The translations under genes were made by a program, and so were the position numbers. Below are positions 9,464 through 44,815 of a DNA stretch of 64,000 bases, piece after piece. Position 1 is the first letter of the stretch. Every line of letters starts with the position of its first letter. Source of the stretch: Macrostomum lignano (lineage: Eukaryota); assembly GCA_002269645.1 (NCBI GenBank), contig NIVC01001016.1, positions 62,001-126,000 on the forward strand. The letters are read 5' to 3'. The notes beneath the pieces were generated by a model that searched no databases, was not told the origin of the DNA, and saw nothing but the letters and a program-made list of their open reading frames with translations.

Positions 9464-24466
<15,003 letters not shown>

Positions 24467-30054: not shown

Positions 30055-30279
30055 CGCACAGGCACACGCTCACACACACGAGTGCACAGCGGCCCTAACT
30101 GTATTTATCGTTAGGCATGTACACTTCACTGTGCCTTGGGGGTTGGCCCTCAATGGCGTTAATTGCACGAGCAGAGCCAAGCCAAGATTCCAATTCAGCC
30201 CCAAATTAATGTGACTGCACTTGGAATCGAGCCTGGGCCGCCGGCATATCAGAGCGCCTCTCGCTAAACCACTAGGCTA
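30055..30279 (-). mobile_element. tRNA-derived SINE, family A
   Basis: Head TAGCCTAGTGGTTTAG (A-box) and GGCTCGATTCC (B-box-like). Body is near-identical to the opposite-strand copy at 44567-44815. Confidence 0.75.
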
Positions 30280-33519: not shown

Positions 33520-34539
33520 CAGTGGGGCGTCCGATTGTTGATCTCTTTAAGAGCTTCAGTTCATAAACGAATGACGTCATTTCACGGGTTTCAGAACTAG
33601 AGGCCTGTCAAATGTATGCATTATCCAGGTTGGAGCTCGCAGTTCCGATTGTACTAAATCAGGAATCATAAAACTCGATCTGTCCCTCTCCCCAGTGAAA
33701 AAAATGATATGGATTCCATGTGGATTTTTCATATGAAATCCATATGTGCATTTGTCTCCGTCCATCCATGTGGAATCAAGATATGGATTCCACATGGAAG
33801 ATCCATATGGAAGTAATTATGTATTTCACATAGAATCCACATTGTCATTGAGTAAGCAGCCATTATACTGGTTGCCATAATAAATTGTTGCATCCTAAAT
33901 CTCAAAATAATACCAGATCTCAAAATTTCATACAAACCCCAGATCTCAATACCATATAAAAGAAACTGAAACACAGATAAAACAATAGCTATAGCCAAAA
34001 ATATTTCTGCACAAAAATTCAAAATTCAATATTCAAAAACGATGTAAGGTGTATTTATGTACAGTAGTGAGTCACTGGCACACAAAGAATAAACACACTG
34101 ATGTAAATATTGATATCTTTAGAGTTGCACTGTGCATATGATATAATATATAATTTGAAATTGACATTGTCAATAGCATTAATTAATTAACAATATTATA
34201 ATGCATCAGAATTAGAACAGTCAGAAACATGCTGCTGCCAATTGCCAGAATGCTGCTTCTTCAGGTCAGGTGAGCAACCTTAGAAAAGAAAGGGGTTAAA
34301 TTACAGAATTTTATAACAGATTGATGACAGATTTTGTAATAGATTTTGATGACAGAAAAAAATCAGTTTATAACTAAAACTTACCATTGCTTCACAAAAG
34401 GTAGCATTCGAGATATTAAATTCAAATTCCAAGTAGCTTTGCAAGCTTCTTCAAATGCAAGACCAAGGTGACATCCAAGTTTGAGGATGGGCCATGTAAT
34501 GTTAGGCTGAAATGAAATAGAAAAATAATTGTTGCCAAT

Positions 34540-35460
34540 ACTACTAAGCAACGGCAGATGGCGCGATTTTGGAGGTGAGGTGGGTGTCAACCCTCCTCGC
34601 CTCTCATTGGCTGGCGCCCCGATCACTAGGTGATCGATACCCGTATCGATATCGGCGCTCGGCGCGCGCGCGCCGCAGGCGCGTGGCGCCAAGCGCCGTC
34701 CAGCCGCAGGCGACCCTCCCCAGCCACCGGCGACCCTCCCCAGCCGCACCTACCGATATGTATGCCCACCCTACCGATATGTACCCCGATATGTACACCC
34801 TCCCGAGCCGCAGGCGCACCCTCCCGAGCCGTAGGCGCCCATGCCGCAGACGCCCATGCCGCAGACGCCCATGCCGCAGGCACCCCGAGTGTACACTCTA
34901 CCGAGCCGCAGGCACCCCGAGTGTACACTCTACCGAGCCGCAGGCACCCCGAGTGTACACTCTACCGATATGTACACTCTACCACTCTCCCGATATGTAG
35001 TCAACGATATTAGGCTAGTGAAAACTACTTATAGTAGGTGAAATTGAGTATATTTACATAAAAATGTAGATAAAACATATTGGTAGGTGAATAATGACGC
35101 ATATTGCATATTAAAATGTACATATTGGAGCATATGAGCAGCAAAAACACACAATGTAGGTGTATGGGCAGAAATAGACAAAGCAGGTACTGTAGGCGCT
35201 ACATAGGTGGAAATACACACAGCAGGTTTACAAAGTGTACTTTCGATACATATCGGATTAATGTATAAAGCAGGTTTACAAGGCATGCATAAGGTGTAGT
35301 TGTATAATACAGGCACGCATGTATAATCAGATTATAGGCAAACGCCCAGGTGCAACAGACGCGTAAATAATGTCGCACCGACTAAAGAGTAAATATTGTC
35401 TAACCCGCAGGTGCATAAAAATTTTAAACAAAAGCGGTTCGGGGAAATCCCAAAAGGGGG
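34540..35460 (+). repeat. Left terminal inverted repeat (~920 bp)
   Basis: Reverse complement of 43090-44028. The two differ in internal VNTR copy number and a few substitutions near the inner edge. Confidence 0.93.
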
Positions 35461-35817
35461 GTTCACGGCCTAATGACCCGATATACTTTCAACACAATTA
35501 AACCCACAAGTGGGCTAGAAAAATGGACGTATTTCGATTGCGCTATCAGTACGCTAATCAGCGCAGCAAGTTCATGTCAGGAGTTCTACTCCAAGAGGCG
35601 GACCGCTGGGCCACAAACCGCCCCGAGGGAATAGGTGTCAAATGGGAGTTTTAACACTTGAGGGGATCCCGCTCAATGTACAGTGGAGGCGCCAAATGAG
35701 TAAGGACCCCTAAGTACAGTGCGGGCGTAAAACCATTTTCATCCCCACGAGTCAAGGGATCCCAAGTGGGCACATAGGGGAATCCCAGGCGTGCAAAGAC
35801 AGATCCTTATCTTTCAC

Positions 35818-38800
35818 TCACTCCCGAAAGCCATACGGGCGGCTAGCGGCCCCATACACTCTCTTAGTCATTACGCGCTGGAAAGTCTTGTCCATCTCGA
35901 GGGTCCTTATTGTACAGCTGGCCTTATCGCGCCTGAACTGGGCCTGGGGCAGGCGGACAGAGCCCCCGTGGCGCAGAATTTCCTGCAGCTCGTCCTCGCG
36001 CTCGGAAATCTCGGGGGTGACTCTGATGCCCTTGCACTTGAGCACCGAGTACAGCGACCTGTCGGGCTTCTCCACCACGTACCGGTAGAGCTTGGGGCCT
36101 CCCGTGGTGAACTGTACCATGCGGCAGCCAGCAGGTACCTCGTCAGTCCACTGCCCCAAACTCGAACCGCCCGGAGGCTCGTACTCGCCCGGTGAGCAGC
36201 GGTATACAACCCTGGGAGGAGGAGGAGAATAAAGTGTTAAGGGGAGAAAGAGAGACAGAGACAGTTGAAAAAATTACTCACGAATCAGTATCGGCGTAAA
36301 TGACTCGGGTTCCTAGGCCCTCCAGAGCCTCGTAGAGTCGCAGCCGGGCGTGGGAGGTGGTGAAAACGCCAATAGGCACATTAGCGTACTTGAACGCCCG
36401 CTCGCCAGCACCGCCAAATCGGGGCTTGTACTCGAGCATCATGAAGCTCTCCCCAATTGGCTCGCACGACTTGACCTTGATCGAGGGGTCGGTCAGGCGC
36501 TGCAGCCACGCCTCGTAGCTGTCCACAATCTCTGTGGAGGTCAGGTCGTCGCGCTGGCAGAACTTGCCCCAGAGCCTGCAGGGGAAAAATAAATTTTTGT
36601 ATATCTGGCTACTGTAAGTAGAAAAACATGGTCCCCACTGCAAGTAGAAAAACTTACGAGTTTAGAAAAATCTTGGCAACAAAGCGCAAGCCAGGATTCT
36701 CCTCCACCTTTTCCAGCCGGACGCCTTCGCGCTCAAAAAAGCTGGCCATGTAGGCAGCCTTGGCGTCCTCAGCCATCCCCGGCGAACCGCTAGACTCTGC
36801 TTTGAGCTTCAAAAAAGTGTTTACATAATCTGCAAACAGGCCCGTGCGAGTCTCGGTCCAATAGGCCAGGGCATGAACTGACTGCAGCTTGTAACCCAAC
36901 TGCAGGGCCTTGTGGAGCTCTGGGGTCGACCACGTGCCGCGGAGCATTCTCTCAGCGTCAGTGTGTGTACACTCGCTGCTGCACTGGGTCTCCATGCAGA
37001 CGCGGCAGAGGCCGAAAACCAGCTTCTTGTTAATCTTGGCGGGCAGTAGCGGGGTGTGGAGATTGGTTGGCGGTAGAATCGACACCTCGGCGATGCCAAA
37101 ATACCGGGCCAGCTGCAGCTCATCCAGTAGATGAGGCTCGGGGTGGTGTACCGGGTGCCCGACAGGGTACTTGTCAAACTTGTTGACAGTCGGGTAGAGC
37201 GACACCTAGGGGATAAGGATAAGATAAACTCAAACGCATGTCAACTGTGTGTGTACAAGTGTACAAACTTACCACATCCCGATAGCGCAGCTCTACAGTC
37301 TCGGTGGCCTCGGCGTGCGGGACAAAAGCCTCGGTACGGCCGCCAAACAGGGCATCCTCCAGGCGAATAGGCTGCTGGACTGGCGCTCCCTCGTCCTGAT
37401 AGTCGTGCTCCCACAGAACACGCACATTGTATGCAGTGGAGAGCAACCGGGTGAAGCGCTCAGTCTCCTCATAAATCGCCCGCATTGGCTGGTTCTTGAG
37501 CGGGTGCAGCACGTCGCCGTTGGGGAAGCACTTGGGACAGCCATGGAAGAAGCAGCCATGAAACTGCAGCACTGTCCTGGTCTCTGGGTCGAAGCCGTCG
37601 ACCTTACGACCCATGGCGAAAGCCTCACCGCCCGAGTCCGCTGTCCGCAACCGGCCGCCAAACTCGGTTGCATTCAAATGTGCCAGCCAGCACCGCGCCT
37701 TGTGCGACTGTACATCGGACCGGCGGGAAATCACCCCAAGAGTGTTGGGCTCCATAAACTTGGTGGTGAATACCGACATGGCCAAGCCCGCAATGGTGTT
37801 GGATTGAACAAATGCGTCCAGTCCGCAAATGTCCTTAATCAGGCGGGCATATTTCAGGCAGCCTTCCCGCAAAATTAACGTGTCCTGCAGGCAATAGTCC
37901 AGGTACTCCTTATTAAAATTAAACACCTGTCCCTCCTGCTTGGCCAGCCAGTCTGCGATGGAGTCATGCTGCTTATTCTTCTTTCCTCCATACATATCAA
38001 TTGAGCAGTAGGGACCGACGTACCCCCAATTTTGAGGCTGGTTAAACACGTGCGGGAAATCTCCTTTGGTCAGTTGGGTGCCCAAACCAAGCGCCTTTGG
38101 GAATTGCGCCAGACCAATAGGGATGAAATTGAGGCTGTCCTTGAAGGTGATCTTGTCGCACTTCATGTACATTAGGCGGCTGTTCTGGAAGATCACCTGC
38201 GGCTTCTTCTTGGCCAGTCCGTTGAGTAGGGCGCCGAGCAGGAGGAATGCGTCATACGCAGAGCCATTGTGCGCAATAGCAATTGCCCCCTGCTTGAACA
38301 CACTAGTCAGCCAGCAGTAAAATGCATCGATAGAGTGCGGCCCGACAGATACAAACTCTCGCATCCCACAGGCACAGTCATTGTGCGAGACACAGCTCGT
38401 GAAATCCAGTGCCAAATCGCGTCCCGCAATGCAATTGGCTGAGCTGTGTAGTCCCCCGCACACGCTGCAGCGGGGCCTGGGGAAGAGTTTGGGACACGCC
38501 TCGCAGGAGGTGGCAGCCGTAACCAAGTGTACCCGGTGCTGCTTGCCAGAGTCCACGTACGTCTCGAAATCATAGTAAACATACGGGGCGCTAGACTCTT
38601 TGGCTTTGGGCGGGGTGACAAAGCACTCGTGGGTGGCAGTTTCGTCGTACTGCTTGCAGACTGGGCACTTGGCATAACCACACTGATGCTCAGGGGGCTG
38701 GCCTACTTTTAGTTCTTCTAGATAGCCACACGTGCCGCAAACGTGGACCGAATCACAGCGCGATCTGCCGCCTTATTCTTGCGCTTGTGATTTTCTAGGC

Positions 38801-40870
38801 ACTGAGCATTATAGCAATTTAGCCCGCAATCCTGGCATCTTACATATGCGCGGTTTGCCTTACAGTTGGAGCCCGGAGTCTTGCATGTACTGCAGGCGTC
38901 AGCGCACTTGTGCTCGGCGTTGGCGCAGTCGTAGGCCATCTCGCACTTGGCGCAGTAGTGATCAGAGCCGAAAAACGCAGGCAGCTTGGTGACCACATTA
39001 AAGTGCTGCTCGACCAGGTGCAGGTGCAGAATCTCGGTGCCAGGCAGGTTGAAGATGCACCTGTTGGCCTCCTCTGCCCTGTACACTCGTACACCAAAAT
39101 CGCGCCCCGGATGCAGCCGGTTCAGGGCACGGATCGCTTCGGGCAGTGCATCCACCCCGAAAGGACCAGCCTGCGAGACGGTTTGAAGAGTCTGTGTGGA
39201 GGGTAAAATATTTCTTTTAGTATTCCCTGATACTGTGTAAAAAATCTTATCAGAAAATATATCTTTTAGTATTCCACGATACTGTGTAAAAATTCTTATC
39301 AGAAAATATATCTTTTAGTATTCCACGACTGTGTAAAAATTCTTATCAGAAAAATACTAGAAACTTACCGTGTAGAGGCCAGCTTCGATTTGTAGCTCAG
39401 CCACCAGCTTAGTCTGCGTGGGCGAATTGGCCTTGATTGTGTGCCACACCCGCTTGGTGATGGACTTGGCCACGAATTGCAGGTAGGCGCAGGCCACGAC
39501 CAGAGCGCGCAGCAGGCATCTCTTGTCCGAGTTGGTGATGCGGACATAGTGCTTGGAGAAGGCGTGCCGCTCTTCTAGATGCTTGTTCTCGAGAGCACAT
39601 CCACCTCGAGGTACCCAGGCTTTAGCAGACGGATAGAAAAGTTGCTCGACAGTACGCTGCGTCTGACTGCACAATCTTGTCAATGTGCTTAAACAACAAT
39701 TCAGCCGTCATGCGGGCTGCACGCACCGGGGGAGTGTGGGCCGCTTTGAGCATATTGTCGCTCTCGAATTTCGCGGCCATAAAGTCATCACCAGCCAAAT
39801 CTTGCTTGAAAACTTCGAGCATGTCAGCAAACACCTCCCGCAAATCTTCGGTGTTGGTAATATGCACCACATACTCGACACCCTTTGCCCTAAACTTGGG
39901 CAGGTCACGCTGATTATCCAGCCGGCCGTAAAACCTGCATGGGGGAATGGGGGAGTGTGAGTCAGCTAGGGTCTGTGTGGGAAATGGGGGGCTGGATAAC
40001 TCACCCGGTCCGGTAACAGATTCCGGCTGTGTTGGCGGGACAAACGCGTCTGAAAAAACACAAGGAGATAAAAAACCAGAAGAATCTGTCATTTTCCTGG
40101 CCCCAGCGTGTTTCCCCGCCCTAGCCCCAGCAATTTCTTAACAGAGTTTACTCTGCTGTCCCCGCAGCAACTCTCTGCAATTTCTTATCTGCACCCCCGC
40201 TGCAGCCTGTCGCAGCAGTCTTTGTTTACTCACCCCTGCAACTCTCTGTCGCAGCAATTTGCACCTAGCTGCAGCCTGTCTGGGTAGCGCCCCTGCCAAT
40301 TTCTTATCAGTCTGTCCCCGCGCTACACAGTCCCAGCAACTCTCTGCCCCACCTGGCTGTAACTTGTCTAGCCTGCCCCAACGATTCTGCAGCAATTTCT
40401 TATCTGCCGCAGCACCCTAGCAACTGTCTGTTTTTGCAGCAATTTCTTATCAGCACACCCCTCCCTGTCTAGACAACCCCCCCACCCCAGTCTTTGTTTA
40501 CTCACCCCTGCAACTCTCTGTCGCAGCAATTTGCACCCCAGCTGCAGCCTGTCTGGACAACACCCCCCTAGCAGCAATTTCTTATCAGCACACACCCGGC
40601 TGAAACTTGTCTAGCCCTCCCCTGCAACTCTCTGTTACAGACCCTGCCGCAGCACCCCACCCTAGCAACTCCAGTCTAGACCCCTGCAGCTGTCGCAGCA
40701 GTCTTTGTTGTTTACTCTGCGGTCCCACAGACCCTGCAGCTGCTGCTGCTGCTCAGCCCCTACCCCCACCCTAGCAACTACAGTCTAGACAGAAATTAAT
40801 TAAAACTTACCATAAAGACGTTGCCTCTTGTCAGCCAGAAAGCAGTTGCTGCGGCGCTGCGTTTAGCCAT
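35818..40870 (-). CDS. polB: Protein-primed family-B DNA polymerase (Polinton/adintovirus type), spliced; well-supported exons 39934-39369, 39191-37273, 37205-36658, 36575-36282, 36211-35818; putative first exon 40870-40811 and a small exon 40049-40005; apparent frameshifts near 39655 and 38760
   Basis: ExoI YYDFET, ExoII AHNGSAYD, FKDSLNFIPIGLAQFPKA, KGDFPH, ExoIII YCLQD, TIAG, FGGRTE, motif A DV|VSLYP, motif B KIFLNS|LWGKF, motif C YADTDS|VVY, GPKLY, KCKGI and KRVY...S.PYGF. Introns are GT-AG and restore the motifs in frame. Confidence 0.93.
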
Positions 40871-40940
40871 TTTGCAAACAGAGAGCGTGAGAGAGCGGAG
40901 AGAGAAGGATTTATCTCTCTACCCTGGCTCTGGGGGTCTG

Positions 40941-41062
40941 TATATATACTAAAAAATCTGCTCAGCTCGCCTGTTATTGGATAAATCGCCAAAAACCAAC
41001 CAAAATCATCAAAAATCACCCCAAAATCATCACCCACCCCACCCTCCACCGGGGGTATATAA
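40941..41062. promoter_or_regulatory. Divergent promoter with two TATA boxes (TATATATA 40941-40948 for polB; TATATAA 41056-41062 for the PC4-like gene)
   Basis: TATA motifs lie about 70 nt upstream of the minus-strand ATG (40870) and about 50 nt upstream of the plus-strand ATG (41112). Confidence 0.6.
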
Positions 41063-41111
41063 GGCGCTGCACGGCTGTCAGAGAGCTCTCTGCTGCTGCT
41101 GCTGCTAAATC

Positions 41112-41645
41112 ATGTCTTCTATCTCTCTATACGAAAACTTTGTGGCGCGGAAGCCCACATTTGAAACTGAACACAACTTGATTGAAATTCGGCGTCTCTA
41201 CACCAACGAGGCCGGAGTGTGGAAGGACGGCTTCCCTGCAATCTACTTGGCCGAGCCAGAGTGGAAGAAGCTCGAAGCTGCGCGCCCTGACCTGGAGGCT
41301 GCTGCCCGCCTTCACGTGAACAAGCGGGTCCTGTTGGGCAATTTCAAGGCAGTTGAAGCTTCGCGAGGGAGGATCCGTTTGCTGCGCAATTGGCTCAATC
41401 AGGACCCAAAGTTTAATTGGCGCTACACGATCGAATTCACGCCTGAACTGTGGCGCCGGATGTTTGCCGCCCGTTTGGACAAGCTCTTCAAGCCGGCACC
41501 TGAGGCACCCCCTCCAGCCAAGCGAGTCAAGACAGACACGCCTCCGGTAGCCGGGACTGAGGTGGATGTTCTTCAGCTCATGGGTCTCAAACCCTACCAA
41601 TCTCCACCCTGGGAAAATCTGTTTAACGAGGGTTGGGACTGCTAG
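41112..41645 (+). CDS. Tandem PC4-like (putative ssDNA-binding) protein with C-terminal NLS, 177 aa
   Basis: LIEIRRLYTNEAGVWKDGFPAIYLAEPEWKKL resembles the PC4 core ([32 protein letters not shown]). A second degenerate copy is IRLLRNWLNQDPKFNWRYTIEFTPELWRRM. PPAKRVKTD resembles the c-Myc-type NLS. Family call is by eye. Confidence 0.68.
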   Translation: MSSISLYENFVARKPTFETEHNLIEIRRLYTNEAGVWKDGFPAIYLAEPEWKKLEAARPDLEAAARLHVNKRVLLGNFKAVEASRGRIRLLRNWLNQDPKFNWRYTIEFTPELWRRMFAARLDKLFKPAPEAPPPAKRVKTDTPPVAGTEVDVLQLMGLKPYQSPPWENLFNEGWDC

Positions 41646-41760
41646 TTTCCTATTGGTTCGCACCGCCTCACTCGATCCGTCTATATAATTAGTGTTTCCC
41701 CCTCTCCAGAGAGTCAAACCCTATCTCAGCTCTAATACTTTACTCTCTGTTGATTCTAGC

Positions 41761-42774
41761 ATGTCCCGCGAGCTCTATCCAACCTCTGGGATAATAATCG
41801 CCCGACTGAAGAGTTAACCAGCCTCGACGGGGATATCCCTGAACACATAGTTCCCCTAGGCACTGAAAACAACGGAAGTGATAATTGGGAGGCTGATCAA
41901 TATCTAGCTTGGGCTATGTCCTATGATAGCGACACCGAGTCTGAAGTTTTTGACCTCCCGCTGCTGGCTATCGGCGGGGTTGTGAACGGTGCCCCTGCTG
42001 CTACTGCCTCCGATTTGACTACCGCCTCAGCCGCCCTCTTTGACGTCTCTGTTGAGGAGCTGACCACAACCGGCCCTGCCTCTGCTGCGCCCGTCTCTGC
42101 TGCTGCCGCCTCTACTACGCCCGTCTCTGCTGCTGCTTCAACTACCTCCCACCGGGCCTCAATATCATCAGCCGCTACGCTCCTTCTCTTCGACGACGAG
42201 GACGAGGATATGTCTGAGGAGATCGCCGTGGTTCGTGAGCGCTTTCCTCGCATTGTGGCCTCATTTTTCCGCGGGGACATTGACTGGCTGAGGTCTCGGC
42301 ATCCTGGCGGGCTGCCCTCCCAAGCTACCTTTGTCAGAGCCTTTAATCGGGTTCTTGATACTTTGGTTGCGAGGGGTGCCGGCCTACGGGAGGTGTTGGA
42401 GGCTGAGACTCTGCACCAGGACTGGTTGATGGGGCGCAATTCGTATGCCCCCGACTCTGAGGCGTACCTGGCCGGTCCGGGAGCGCGGCCAACTGCGTGG
42501 GATGAGCCCGTCGCATGGCCCTCCAACTGGGAGGAGCACCTTTCGTTGGTGCGCTATACAGCGTCTCTACGTCTGTGGCGGCTGGAGGACGATTTAGATT
42601 TGGTAAGATATTACATTATATACACAACTTATCTAATCATATACCTTGCATATATTCTATCTACATTGACTGTTATAATTTCCACATTGCCAGTCATCCG
42701 ACTACTGCTTCGAGAGCGTGGAGGAAGAGGCCGCGTACGAGACAGCCCTGAGGGAGCGTATGGAGATTGACTGA
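41761..42774 (+). CDS. Unknown acidic protein of the Polinton-like element; exons 41761(or 41916)-42602 and 42694-42774; probable 1-nt frameshift near 41780
   Basis: The 41916 frame stays open upstream to about 41780. ATG 41761 follows a TATA-like TATATAA near 41681. Intron 42603-42693 is GT-AG, phase 0, and gives the C-terminus SSDYCFESVEEEAAYETALRERMEID*. Confidence 0.6.
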
Positions 42775-43089
42775 TAAGGGTATTTCTCTTTGTACGCGGT
42801 TTGGGGAACCCAACACTGTACACTGGGTAGGTTAGAATGTGCGCTAGCTGGGGGCCTCTATGTGTGTATACACGGGGGTTAAAAGACCAATTCTGATAGC
42901 TCGCTCCTAGGGAGGAAATTGGCAGAGGGGCCGGCCCAAAAAACTGAAATGGGCTGGCCCCGGGCTCGAGTCCACCCACCTAAAATATGGAGGTCATTAC
43001 AACCTAATGACCCGAAATACTTTCAACGCAATTGTACCTATAAGAGGGTTAGGGCGGCGGCGGCGGTGGCGAAAACGGGCGGCTAAAAC

Positions 43090-44028
43090 CTCCCTTTTGG
43101 GATTTCCCCGAACCGCTTTTGGTTAAAATTTATGCACCTGCGGGTTAGACAATATTTACTCTTTAGTCGGTGCGACATTATTTACGCGTCTGTTGCACCT
43201 GGGCGTTTGCCTATAATCTGATTATACATGCGTGCCTGTATTATACAACTACACCTTATGCATGCCTTGTAAACCTGCTTTATACATTAATCCGATATGT
43301 ATCGAAAGTACACTTTGTAAACCTGCTGTGTGTATTTCCACCTATGTAGCGCCTACAGTACCTGCTTTGTCTATTTCTGCCCATACACCTACATTGTGTG
43401 TTTTTGCTGCTCATATGCTCCAATATGTACATTTTAATATGCAATATGCGTCATTATTCACCTACCAATATGTTTTATCTACATTTTTATGTAAATATAC
43501 TCAATTTCACCTACTATAAGTAGTTTTCACTAGCCTAATATCGTTGACTACATATCGGGAGAGTGGTAGAGTGTACATATCGGTAGAGTGTACACTCGGG
43601 GTGCCTGCGGCTCGGTAGAGTGTACACTCGGGGTGCCTGCGGCTCGGTAGAGTGTACACTCGGGTGCCTGCGGCATGGGCGTCTGCGGCATGGGCGTCTG
43701 CGGCATGGGCGTCTGCGGCATGGGCGCCTACGGCTCGGGAGGGTGCGCCTGCGGCTCGGGAGGGTGTACATATCGGGGTACATATCGGTAGGGTGGGCAT
43801 ACATATCGGTAGGTGCGCCTGCGGCTGGGGAGGGTCGCCGGTGGCTGGGGAGGGTCGCCTGCGGCTGGACGGCGCTTGGCGCCACGCGCCTGCGGCGCGC
43901 GCGCGCCGAGCGCCGATATCGATACGGGTATCGATCACCTAGTGATCGGGGCGCCAGCCAATGAGAGGCGAGGAGGGTTGACACCCACCTCACCTCCAAA
44001 ATCGCGCCATCTGCCGTTGCTTAGTAGT
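43090..44028 (-). repeat. Right terminal inverted repeat (~940 bp)
   Basis: Reverse complement of 34540-35460. Confidence 0.93.
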
Positions 44029-44566
44029 GCCAATTAAGATTAATAAATAATATTGATATAATTCATAAAACTAATTTAATGATAAATACTTATAAAATAA
44101 AATAAAGTTTATTTTTAAATTAACTAGGCCTAAGTCCTAGGTTTATTTTTTAAGCGCAAAATGTGCATATGCACCCTAAATTTTAAAATTGCACCTTGAA
44201 AATTGAAATTAAAAAGTTGATGATACAGTTTAGGTGTGATCTCATTACCTATTTTTCTGTTGAAGCCTATTTTGCACTGCCTTTATATAAGAAAAAAGAG
44301 AAACTGCATTCTAAGCCTTAAAATCATAAAACCCTAAAAGTGAGCATAGGGTATGATTTTGCACCTTGTCTCTAGCAAAAAAGAAAACCCTACCTAAGTC
44401 AATCAATAAAATAAAATTAATAAAATTAAAATAATAAGTACAAAGAATTAATATATGTTTCTATAAATTTAATTTTTTATTTTAAAATTGATTTTAGACT
44501 ATAAAGTATTTAGGCAAAGCAATGCATGTTTTTTTTATATTTGCTGGCCTATTATGATTAAAAGGG

Positions 44567-44815
44567 GGGCTGTAGCCAAGCGGTAACACAGCTGCTCTGG
44601 TGTGCCAACGACCTAGGCTCGATTCCAAGTGCAGTCACATTAATTTGGGGCTGAATTGGAATCTTGGCTTGGCTCTCTGCTTGTGCAATTAACGGCCTTG
44701 AGAGCCAACCCCCAAGGCACAGTGAAGTATACATGCCTAACAATAAATAAAGTTAGGGCCACTGTACACTCCTATGTAAGTGTGCCTGCATACGTATCCG
44801 CACGCTTGTGTGCCT
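44567..44815 (+). mobile_element. tRNA-derived SINE, family A (second copy, inside the CMC-like element)
   Basis: GGGCTGTAGCCAAGCGG head, GGCTCGATTCC box, and a body matching 30055-30279 on the opposite strand. Confidence 0.75.

Follow-up and report, generated by a model that had tools for sequence, protein, structure and literature searches.

A stretch of 64,000 nucleotides from the flatworm Macrostomum lignano (contig NIVC01001016.1, positions 62,001 to 126,000; hereafter the window) contains a 9,489-bp element at 34540-44028 with GCCAAT on both sides. The element belongs to a family, here called family A, which has inserted repeatedly and precisely and has no recognisable integrase or capsid gene. 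The best reading of the data is that family A is an old Polinton offshoot maintained by selection, nuclear and linear-plasmid-like, which copies itself but has no insertion or packaging machinery of its own. More specifically, family A is probably a replication-competent, integration-dependent Polinton satellite that uses the integrase of a resident Polinton in trans. The element had been described in an earlier note made from the letters of the window; the present analysis adds the multi-copy family, the palindromes that accompany it, a tip motif that is not canonical and the breaks in the reading frames of the window copy.

A complete element with three genes

The features of the element are listed below in window coordinates.

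34534..34539: left target-site duplication (TSD), GCCAAT
34540..35463, + strand: left terminal inverted repeat (TIR), about 924 bp
35818..40870, - strand: spliced Alpha-type protein-primed DNA polymerase gene (pPolB), from PF03175, motifs and splice joints
36212..36281, - strand: GT-AG intron of 70 nt in the PolC region; joint seen in all three putative RNA runs but not in the putative DNA run
36576..36657, - strand: GT-AG intron of 82 nt in motif B, from run contigs
37206..37272, - strand: GT-AG intron of 67 nt in motif A, from run contigs
39192..39368, - strand: GT-AG intron of 177 nt containing a 49-bp tandem repeat, from run contigs
39926..40002, - strand: probable intron of about 77 nt; its ends in the window copy are not clean GT-AG and run contigs differ at the joint
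40050..40810, - strand: GT-AG first intron of 761 nt; joint in two of three putative RNA runs
41112..41645, + strand: open reading frame 2 (ORF2), 177 aa, PC4-like, putative single-stranded DNA-binding protein, from similarity to resident Polinton PC4 proteins
41761..42774, + strand: ORF3, acidic orphan of about 310 aa with a predicted intron at 42603-42693
43087..44028, - strand: right TIR, about 942 bp, ending in AGTAGT on the + strand
44029..44034: right TSD, GCCAAT

The earlier note had called the element complete, and both the TIR alignment and the flanks confirm this. Over about 0.93 kb the two TIRs align with 915 matches, one substitution and five gaps and, therefore, the insertion of this copy, or its last copying, was recent. 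From its outer end, the left TIR consists of the tip ACTACT, which is a 3-nt repeat, a mosaic block at about 8-26, a part conserved to about 180 bp and short tandem repeats. The 22-nt tip was found exactly twice in the window, compared to 0.00 expected from 100 shuffles. Both the TIR length and the 6-bp TSD lie in the range of Polintons (100-1,500 bp, and 5-8 bp, usually 6). The interior was also rightly described as mostly spliced pPolB, ORF2 and ORF3, since the three gene spans occupy about 6.6 of its 7.6 kb, with intergenic gaps of 116-357 bp. The window copy is frame-broken, in pPolB near 38770 and around 39600-39660 and in ORF3 near 41768. Sister copies and run contigs have different letters at 38770 and 41768, and part of these breaks may be assembly errors.

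Integrase, capsid, ATPase and protease genes were not recognisable in the element, as the earlier note had stated. A Pfam search of 10 frames gave PF03175 as the sole significant family, and tblastn of a 33-protein Polinton panel against the window element gave polymerase matches only. The panel held eight integrase pieces, six major capsid proteins (MCP), four minor capsid proteins (mCP), five ATPases, three proteases, two PC4 proteins and five pPolBs. As a control, two Polintons matched it for integrase, MCP, mCP and ATPase. The PC4 proteins of the panel, which are 31-33% identical to ORF2, missed ORF2 by tblastn and, thus, distant homologues can escape the panel. Family A has the protein-primed B-family DNA polymerase of a Polinton. 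It departs from Polintons in integrase, in MCP, mCP, ATPase and protease, in the length of 13-25 kb and in the end motif.

The polymerase is spliced and under purifying selection

The predicted pPolB protein has, in order, an N-terminal TP-like part, vOTU Cys/His motifs, a Cys-rich region, ExoI-III, an insert and PolA-C. We take the insert to be VSR-like, partly from the names of database proteins. The start codon presumably lies at 40870. Two pPolB exons match PF03175 (Pfam, E 7.6e-18 and 1.1e-12), and the protein has the two features of the Alpha PolB class, a pfam03175 match and an N-terminal OTU domain. The vOTU motifs were identified by analogy to PMC11161782, at the motif level rather than from structure. 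Database proteins under the name Macrostomum lignano match the window pPolB at 98-100% identity. For P0008, a relative from the sister family B described below, the predicted structure (pLDDT 71.5) had phi29 polymerase as its best fold match (E 1.5e-10). A search of viral contigs gave no close pPolB relative, the full-length relatives being only 20-33% identical, and no occurrence of the family-A tip motif.

In putative RNA runs, family-A pPolB is transcribed and spliced. Four sequencing runs were compared, whose RNA or DNA status is the guess of the tool used, none being on record as RNA. Five of the splice joints were found in all three putative RNA runs, which come from three studies, and the sixth in two; the putative DNA run had none. 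Clean GT-AG ends are seen in five of the six introns, and spliced pPolB extends over 2,936 nt in one of the run contigs.

pPolB and ORF3 are under purifying selection. Across the last pPolB exons of 9-12 loci, variants common to at least two loci were 33 synonymous vs 4 non-synonymous, and private variants were 10 vs 3. ORF3 had, for all variants, 14 synonymous vs 3 non-synonymous over 16 loci. Some of the loci in these counts are duplicate sites. Other copies of family A have longer open pPolB frames, and C1640 (contigs are given by C numbers) has a 532-aa frame identical to that of the window copy.

Family A in the genome

A TIR search, of which the best 40 of 324 candidates were used, found inverted pairs, spaced by about 9.3-10.1 kb, on 16 contigs. 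Wherever both ends were covered, which was the case in 11 contigs, there was a 6-bp TSD, with C1640 and C1573 probably representing a single site. The genome search with the element's tip that the earlier note had proposed revealed a family with 6-bp TSDs, the tip pattern having 220 matches vs 0 for a control pattern. The tip census is based on 100 of the 220 matches, which gave 39 pairs and 22 unpaired tips. Nineteen of these pairs are family A, 16 are of type C, described below, one is a chimera and three are unassigned.

The length of 18 of the 19 family-A pairs is 8.7-10.1 kb. Because of this constant size, the window element is not a private deletion, and a simple deletion, the conservative alternative in the earlier note, also disagrees with genes under purifying selection. 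No autonomous parent that shares TIRs and genes with family A was found in the 39 listed pairs or among the best 52 of 519 pPolB candidates. For the earlier note, the sign of a deletion derivative would have been a larger sibling that has these genes and, in addition, integrase or capsid genes. No such sibling was found among the listed pairs, and both oversized tip pairs (C106 and C271) contain nested Polintons. The 40.6-kb pair on C271 was rejected as a larger sibling, as the 20 kb examined, of about 34 kb between its pPolB and ORF2, hold nested Polinton DNA and other repeats.

A sister family and the deletion explanation

A second group of polymerases, family B, is 60-67% identical to family A; in one copy, 312 of 472 aligned pPolB residues were identical (34% differ). 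Families A and B grouped together, as a single clade with a long stem (SH-aLRT 100), in a tree made by a quick method from 35 rows and one exon-sized region. They have four pPolB intron positions in common, judged by eye, as well as ACTAC tips. The family-B copy on C1485 has ACTACG tips, the TSD AACGTT and TIRs of about 3.7 kb with 250-bp repeats. No integrase or capsid gene was found in it by tblastn with the panel, and no ORF3 homologue was seen. ORF2 homologues, 44-45% identical, adjoin four other family-B polymerases. The gene-poor layout, judged from one family-B copy, probably predates the split of A and B. One TIR of the C1485 copy also contains a 1.5-kb foldback insertion.

The Alpha-type pPolB loci among the best 52 of 519 candidates all belonged to A or B except for one. 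This locus, C234:57210-58490, is a decayed third Alpha-type pPolB with four stops, 16 kb from an MCP match. Its identity to a metagenomic polymerase (43%) exceeds that of A or B (33-38% over the same region), and it is possibly the relic of a complete element.

Family A could also be non-autonomous and have arisen by deletion from an autonomous Alpha Polinton, lost or not yet seen, with the polymerase as a passenger and the parent responsible for both copying and insertion. Non-autonomous Polintons are known, core Polinton genes are missing from family A, many of its copies are broken, and C234 could be what is left of a complete element. However, pPolB and ORF3 are under strong purifying selection among copies that have no integrase, and spliced pPolB transcripts are present in the putative RNA runs. 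A and B, although 34% apart, both have the gene-poor layout in the copies examined, and the other pPolB loci among those scored were all A or B, with C234 further off. We consider the deletion explanation quite improbable.

ORF2 and ORF3

The PC4-like nature of ORF2, which the earlier note had proposed, is indirectly indicated through transitive homology. ORF2 shows 29-34% identity to PC4 proteins from complete Polintons in this genome, and two of those proteins exceed the Pfam PC4 (PF02229) cut-off. By itself, ORF2 falls below that cut-off (E=0.1). Its Atlas score was 0.86, its PDB match was weak (E=0.71), and a model made from its sequence alone had a pLDDT of 36, too low for use. Five family-A copies (C1157, C1158, C1090, C2368 and C3431) carry two ORF2 genes in inverted orientation and are possibly copy-back or rearranged forms. 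C1176 and C1753 each have several ORF2 homologues, 37-42% identical, near family-A ORF2 fragments.

ORF3 is conserved, and the database model P0126 carries its spliced end. Its close homologues, where named, are from Macrostomum only. About half of the protein is low-complexity. The sole match beyond the near-identical set, a WW-repeat protein, was taken as spurious.

One possible explanation for the insertions is that family A is autonomous, with ORF3 as an unrecognised integrase or recombinase, or that another host enzyme inserts it, e.g. the integrase of a long terminal repeat (LTR) retrotransposon. ORF3 is a conserved orphan, one of its near-identical database proteins (P0125) has a name that mentions a DDE transposase, and the tips of family A are unlike those of resident Polintons. 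Against this, the near-identical database proteins bear six unrelated names. Pfam, Atlas (best score 0.76) and HMMER gave no integrase or capsid match for ORF3, so the homology in this frame that would have contradicted the earlier note was not found. In addition, the family-B copy still has a 6-bp TSD with no visible ORF3 homologue. The chance that family A depends on ORF3 or such a host enzyme appears slim, and insertion by a resident Polinton integrase is preferred.

Palindromes with family-A tips

The type C copies examined are non-coding giant palindromes with family-A tips. C625:278529-287788, which was read whole, is a 9,260-bp palindrome (99.5%) with arms of about 4.57 kb, the TSD GAGGTT and a centre of about 120 bp between (CA)n tracts. 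It matches family A at 92% over the first 170-180 bp or so, the conserved stretch of about 180 bp that the family-A TIR has in common with type C, and beyond this in patches of TIR repeats only. A 6-bp TSD was present at three of three type C elements (two are probably one site), and the arm motif had 100 genome matches with about 40 inverted pairs. No Pfam match above cut-off was obtained from seven frames of the C625 arm, Rfam matched neither the type C element nor either end of the window element, and when two type C arms were compared, synonymous changes were not convincingly in excess in any frame (the counts were small). C2693 (16.5 kb) was rejected as a helper, since it is palindromic and its centre is a 661-bp tandem array. 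C428:214927-223625 and C4851 are chimeric, each combining a truncated family-A pPolB with an arm of type C at identical spacing.

The tips also vary between copies. Inside the tip (window 34547-34565), short interchangeable blocks form a mosaic. By eye, seven tip haplotypes were found in both A and C elements, and the two ends agreed within 1 nt in 13/19 A pairs and 16/16 C pairs. The mosaic tips and common haplotypes suggest tip exchange during replication, and the agreement of ends is consistent with joint replication in which the ends are homogenised. Recombination or misassembly may account for the six A pairs whose ends differ.

Another explanation is a bipartite Polinton. In this case, family A would be the replication segment, a partner with the same tips would carry integrase and capsid genes but no polymerase, and type C would be copy-back defective genomes of a partner arm, with tip haplotypes exchanged in shared protein-primed replication. 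Five tip-bounded elements, four of them of 7.5-10.5 kb, have no assigned content, and neither pPolB nor ORF2 nor the type C motif is listed for them: C807:310882-321422 and C382:268191-278560 (10.4-10.5 kb), C558:43471-53355, C271:410712-418178 and a 3.2-kb element on C190. About 10 kb would suit a capsid-plus-integrase module, which takes up 8 kb in the insert on C106. The type C arm needs a parent, as it matches family A beyond about 0.5 kb in TIR-repeat patches only, and segments of bidnaviruses, which are close to Alpha PolBs, share termini (PMC8502044).

However, integrase and capsid genes occur in the 39 listed pairs only by way of the nested Polintons on C106 and C271. No listed MCP, ATPase or integrase match lay within the unassigned elements, in genome searches that scored the best 126 of 195 MCP, 125 of 1642 integrase and 150 of 383 ATPase candidates. 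The multipartite partner suggested in the earlier note gained no positive evidence, and the main companions with the same tips are palindromes with no coding signal in the copies examined. A bipartite Polinton is possible but rather unlikely, and we return to family A as a satellite.

Resident Polintons as possible helpers

Four canonical Polinton families were read in part (C67/C2232/C2507, C211, C283 and C664). Integrase frames were found in three of them and polymerases in three, and many resident copies keep open integrase frames. The ATPase matches in the genome include a family at 45-46% identity. C664 and the insert on C106 are complete Beta-type Polintons that carry PC4. By eye, they also have ORFs that we take to be TBP-like and exonuclease-like, and presumably gag-like and envelope-like ORFs lie beside C664. 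C67/C2232 and C283 have a short unit (about 100 and 310 bp) with AGTAGT at both ends beside the integrase end, and their integrases have an N-terminal extension which, to our eyes, is presumably PLA2-like. The resident polymerases are without PF03175 and carry Endonuclease_7, as in the Beta class described in PMC8502044, and tblastn gave no match between them and family A. The resident Polintons were rejected as the parent of family A because there is no nucleotide similarity and the polymerase class is different. AGTAGT tips were seen in the C106 insert, with the TSD confirmed, and in C67/C2232 and C283 from tips alone. The 21-kb C106 pair, with family tips, integrase and capsid genes, was considered as a helper and rejected, since those genes are in the nested 12.1-kb Polinton, which has AGTAGT tips, its own 6-bp TSD and a type C palindrome as host.

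We propose the following mechanism for a satellite. The TP-vOTU-pPolB would prime at the ACTACT tips and copy an excised or displaced strand, ORF2 would coat single strands, and a TIR panhandle would regenerate the second origin, by which both ends would stay alike. The free linear product would then be inserted by the retrovirus-like integrase of a complete Beta-type resident Polinton, which would produce the 6-bp TSD. This integrase would tolerate tip positions 2 and 5, the sole differences between ACTACT and AGTAGT. Type C would hitch-hike on the family-A polymerase and the same integrase and, thus, there would be a three-tier chain from complete Polinton to family A to type C. The frame-broken window copy would need sister copies for its polymerase.

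Several points weigh against this proposal. ACTAC tips were not seen on any helper, and the three resident families with known ends start with AGTAGT; therefore, cross-recognition of ACTACT is assumed. A free linear form of family A was not observed, and the family is known here from contigs alone. The census covered 100 of the 220 tips, 22 of those 100 are unpaired, and five tip-bounded elements (three pairs plus the two 10.4-10.5-kb pairs) have unassigned content. The genome searches for capsid, integrase and ATPase were crowded and scored the shares of candidates given above, and PF21738 missed two MCP families that were found later. The single family-B copy examined appears decayed and is without a PC4 match of its own. 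The earlier note's proposal that integration comes from elsewhere is supported by a family that has no recognisable integrase. The satellite itself is favoured by the constant size of the family, by selection and by resident Polintons with open integrase frames and another polymerase class, and disfavoured by the other tips of those whose ends were seen.

Comparison to known systems

Family A resembles Polintons and the Alpha-PolB adintoviruses (PMC8502044) in its PF03175 pPolB with OTU motifs, long TIRs and 6-bp TSD. The putative PC4-like accessory gene of family A also has counterparts in the resident Polintons. Family A differs in having no integrase, MCP, mCP, ATPase or protease and in its size of 9.5 kb, compared to 13-25 kb for Polintons (PMC10748475). 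Vertebrate Mavericks have (AGT)2 or (AG)3 tips and the intact ones are intronless (PMC8097293), whereas family A has ACTACT tips and 5-6 pPolB introns.

The yeast cytoplasmic linear plasmids of the pGKL type come from polintons that lost their capsid module, and priming by TP-vOTU-pPolB is established (PMC11161782). Like family A, these plasmids are capsid-less replicons with a TP-vOTU-EXO-PALM polymerase and TIRs (PMC11161782). Unlike them, family A is nuclear, spliced, integrated with TSDs, multi-copy and from an animal. Among these plasmids, pGKL2 has its own transcription machinery, which family A does not have. For the mitochondrial kalilo plasmid, hairpin or duplex deletion derivatives have reportedly been described, which would be a parallel to type C, and an adenovirus study is said to have found that terminal repeats suit jumping-back initiation.

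The Bidnaviridae also have an Alpha-type pPolB, on segments that share termini (PMC8502044). Their vOTU Cys/His residues are inactivated (PMC11161782), whereas those of family A are kept. Family A has no match to a parvovirus-type capsid or NS1, and it integrates with a TSD. Transpovirons and Tlr1 are, as family A is, gene-poor Polinton relatives that rely on another element in part of the cycle. Tlr1 keeps an integrase and has no pPolB, which is the reverse of family A. Transpovirons, unlike family A, have Tlr1-like helicases and parasitise mimivirids (PMC11161782).

Surroundings of the element

The element is flanked by an inverted repeat pair at 30074-30255 and 44594-44777 (89-93%), about 14.4 kb apart, which is possibly an older, unrelated transposon that received it. 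Elsewhere, the window has a 7-kb minisatellite with a 24-nt unit at 13881-20943, an (AGT)n array at 21531-22095 and dozens of further tandem arrays.

Significance

No account of family A, or of a pPolB-only element that integrates in an animal genome, was found in the literature, although Repbase, subscription papers and supplements may hold one. Polintons have been defined by polymerase plus integrase (PMC5499653), and a large pPolB survey counted integrase-linked genes only (PMC10748475). Therefore, lineages with no integrase would be invisible to that survey. Here, selection maintains a pPolB lineage with no recognisable integrase, whose polymerase gene is expressed and spliced and whose copies have been inserted precisely. 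If our reading is true, family A would be the equivalent, in the nucleus of an animal, of the passage from virus to plasmid that has been proposed for the yeast linear plasmids. Its presence in a laboratory flatworm makes testable whether a Polinton pPolB replicates a free linear form, how a Polinton integrase recognises ACTACT vs AGTAGT ends, and how palindromic Maverick-ended elements originate and spread.

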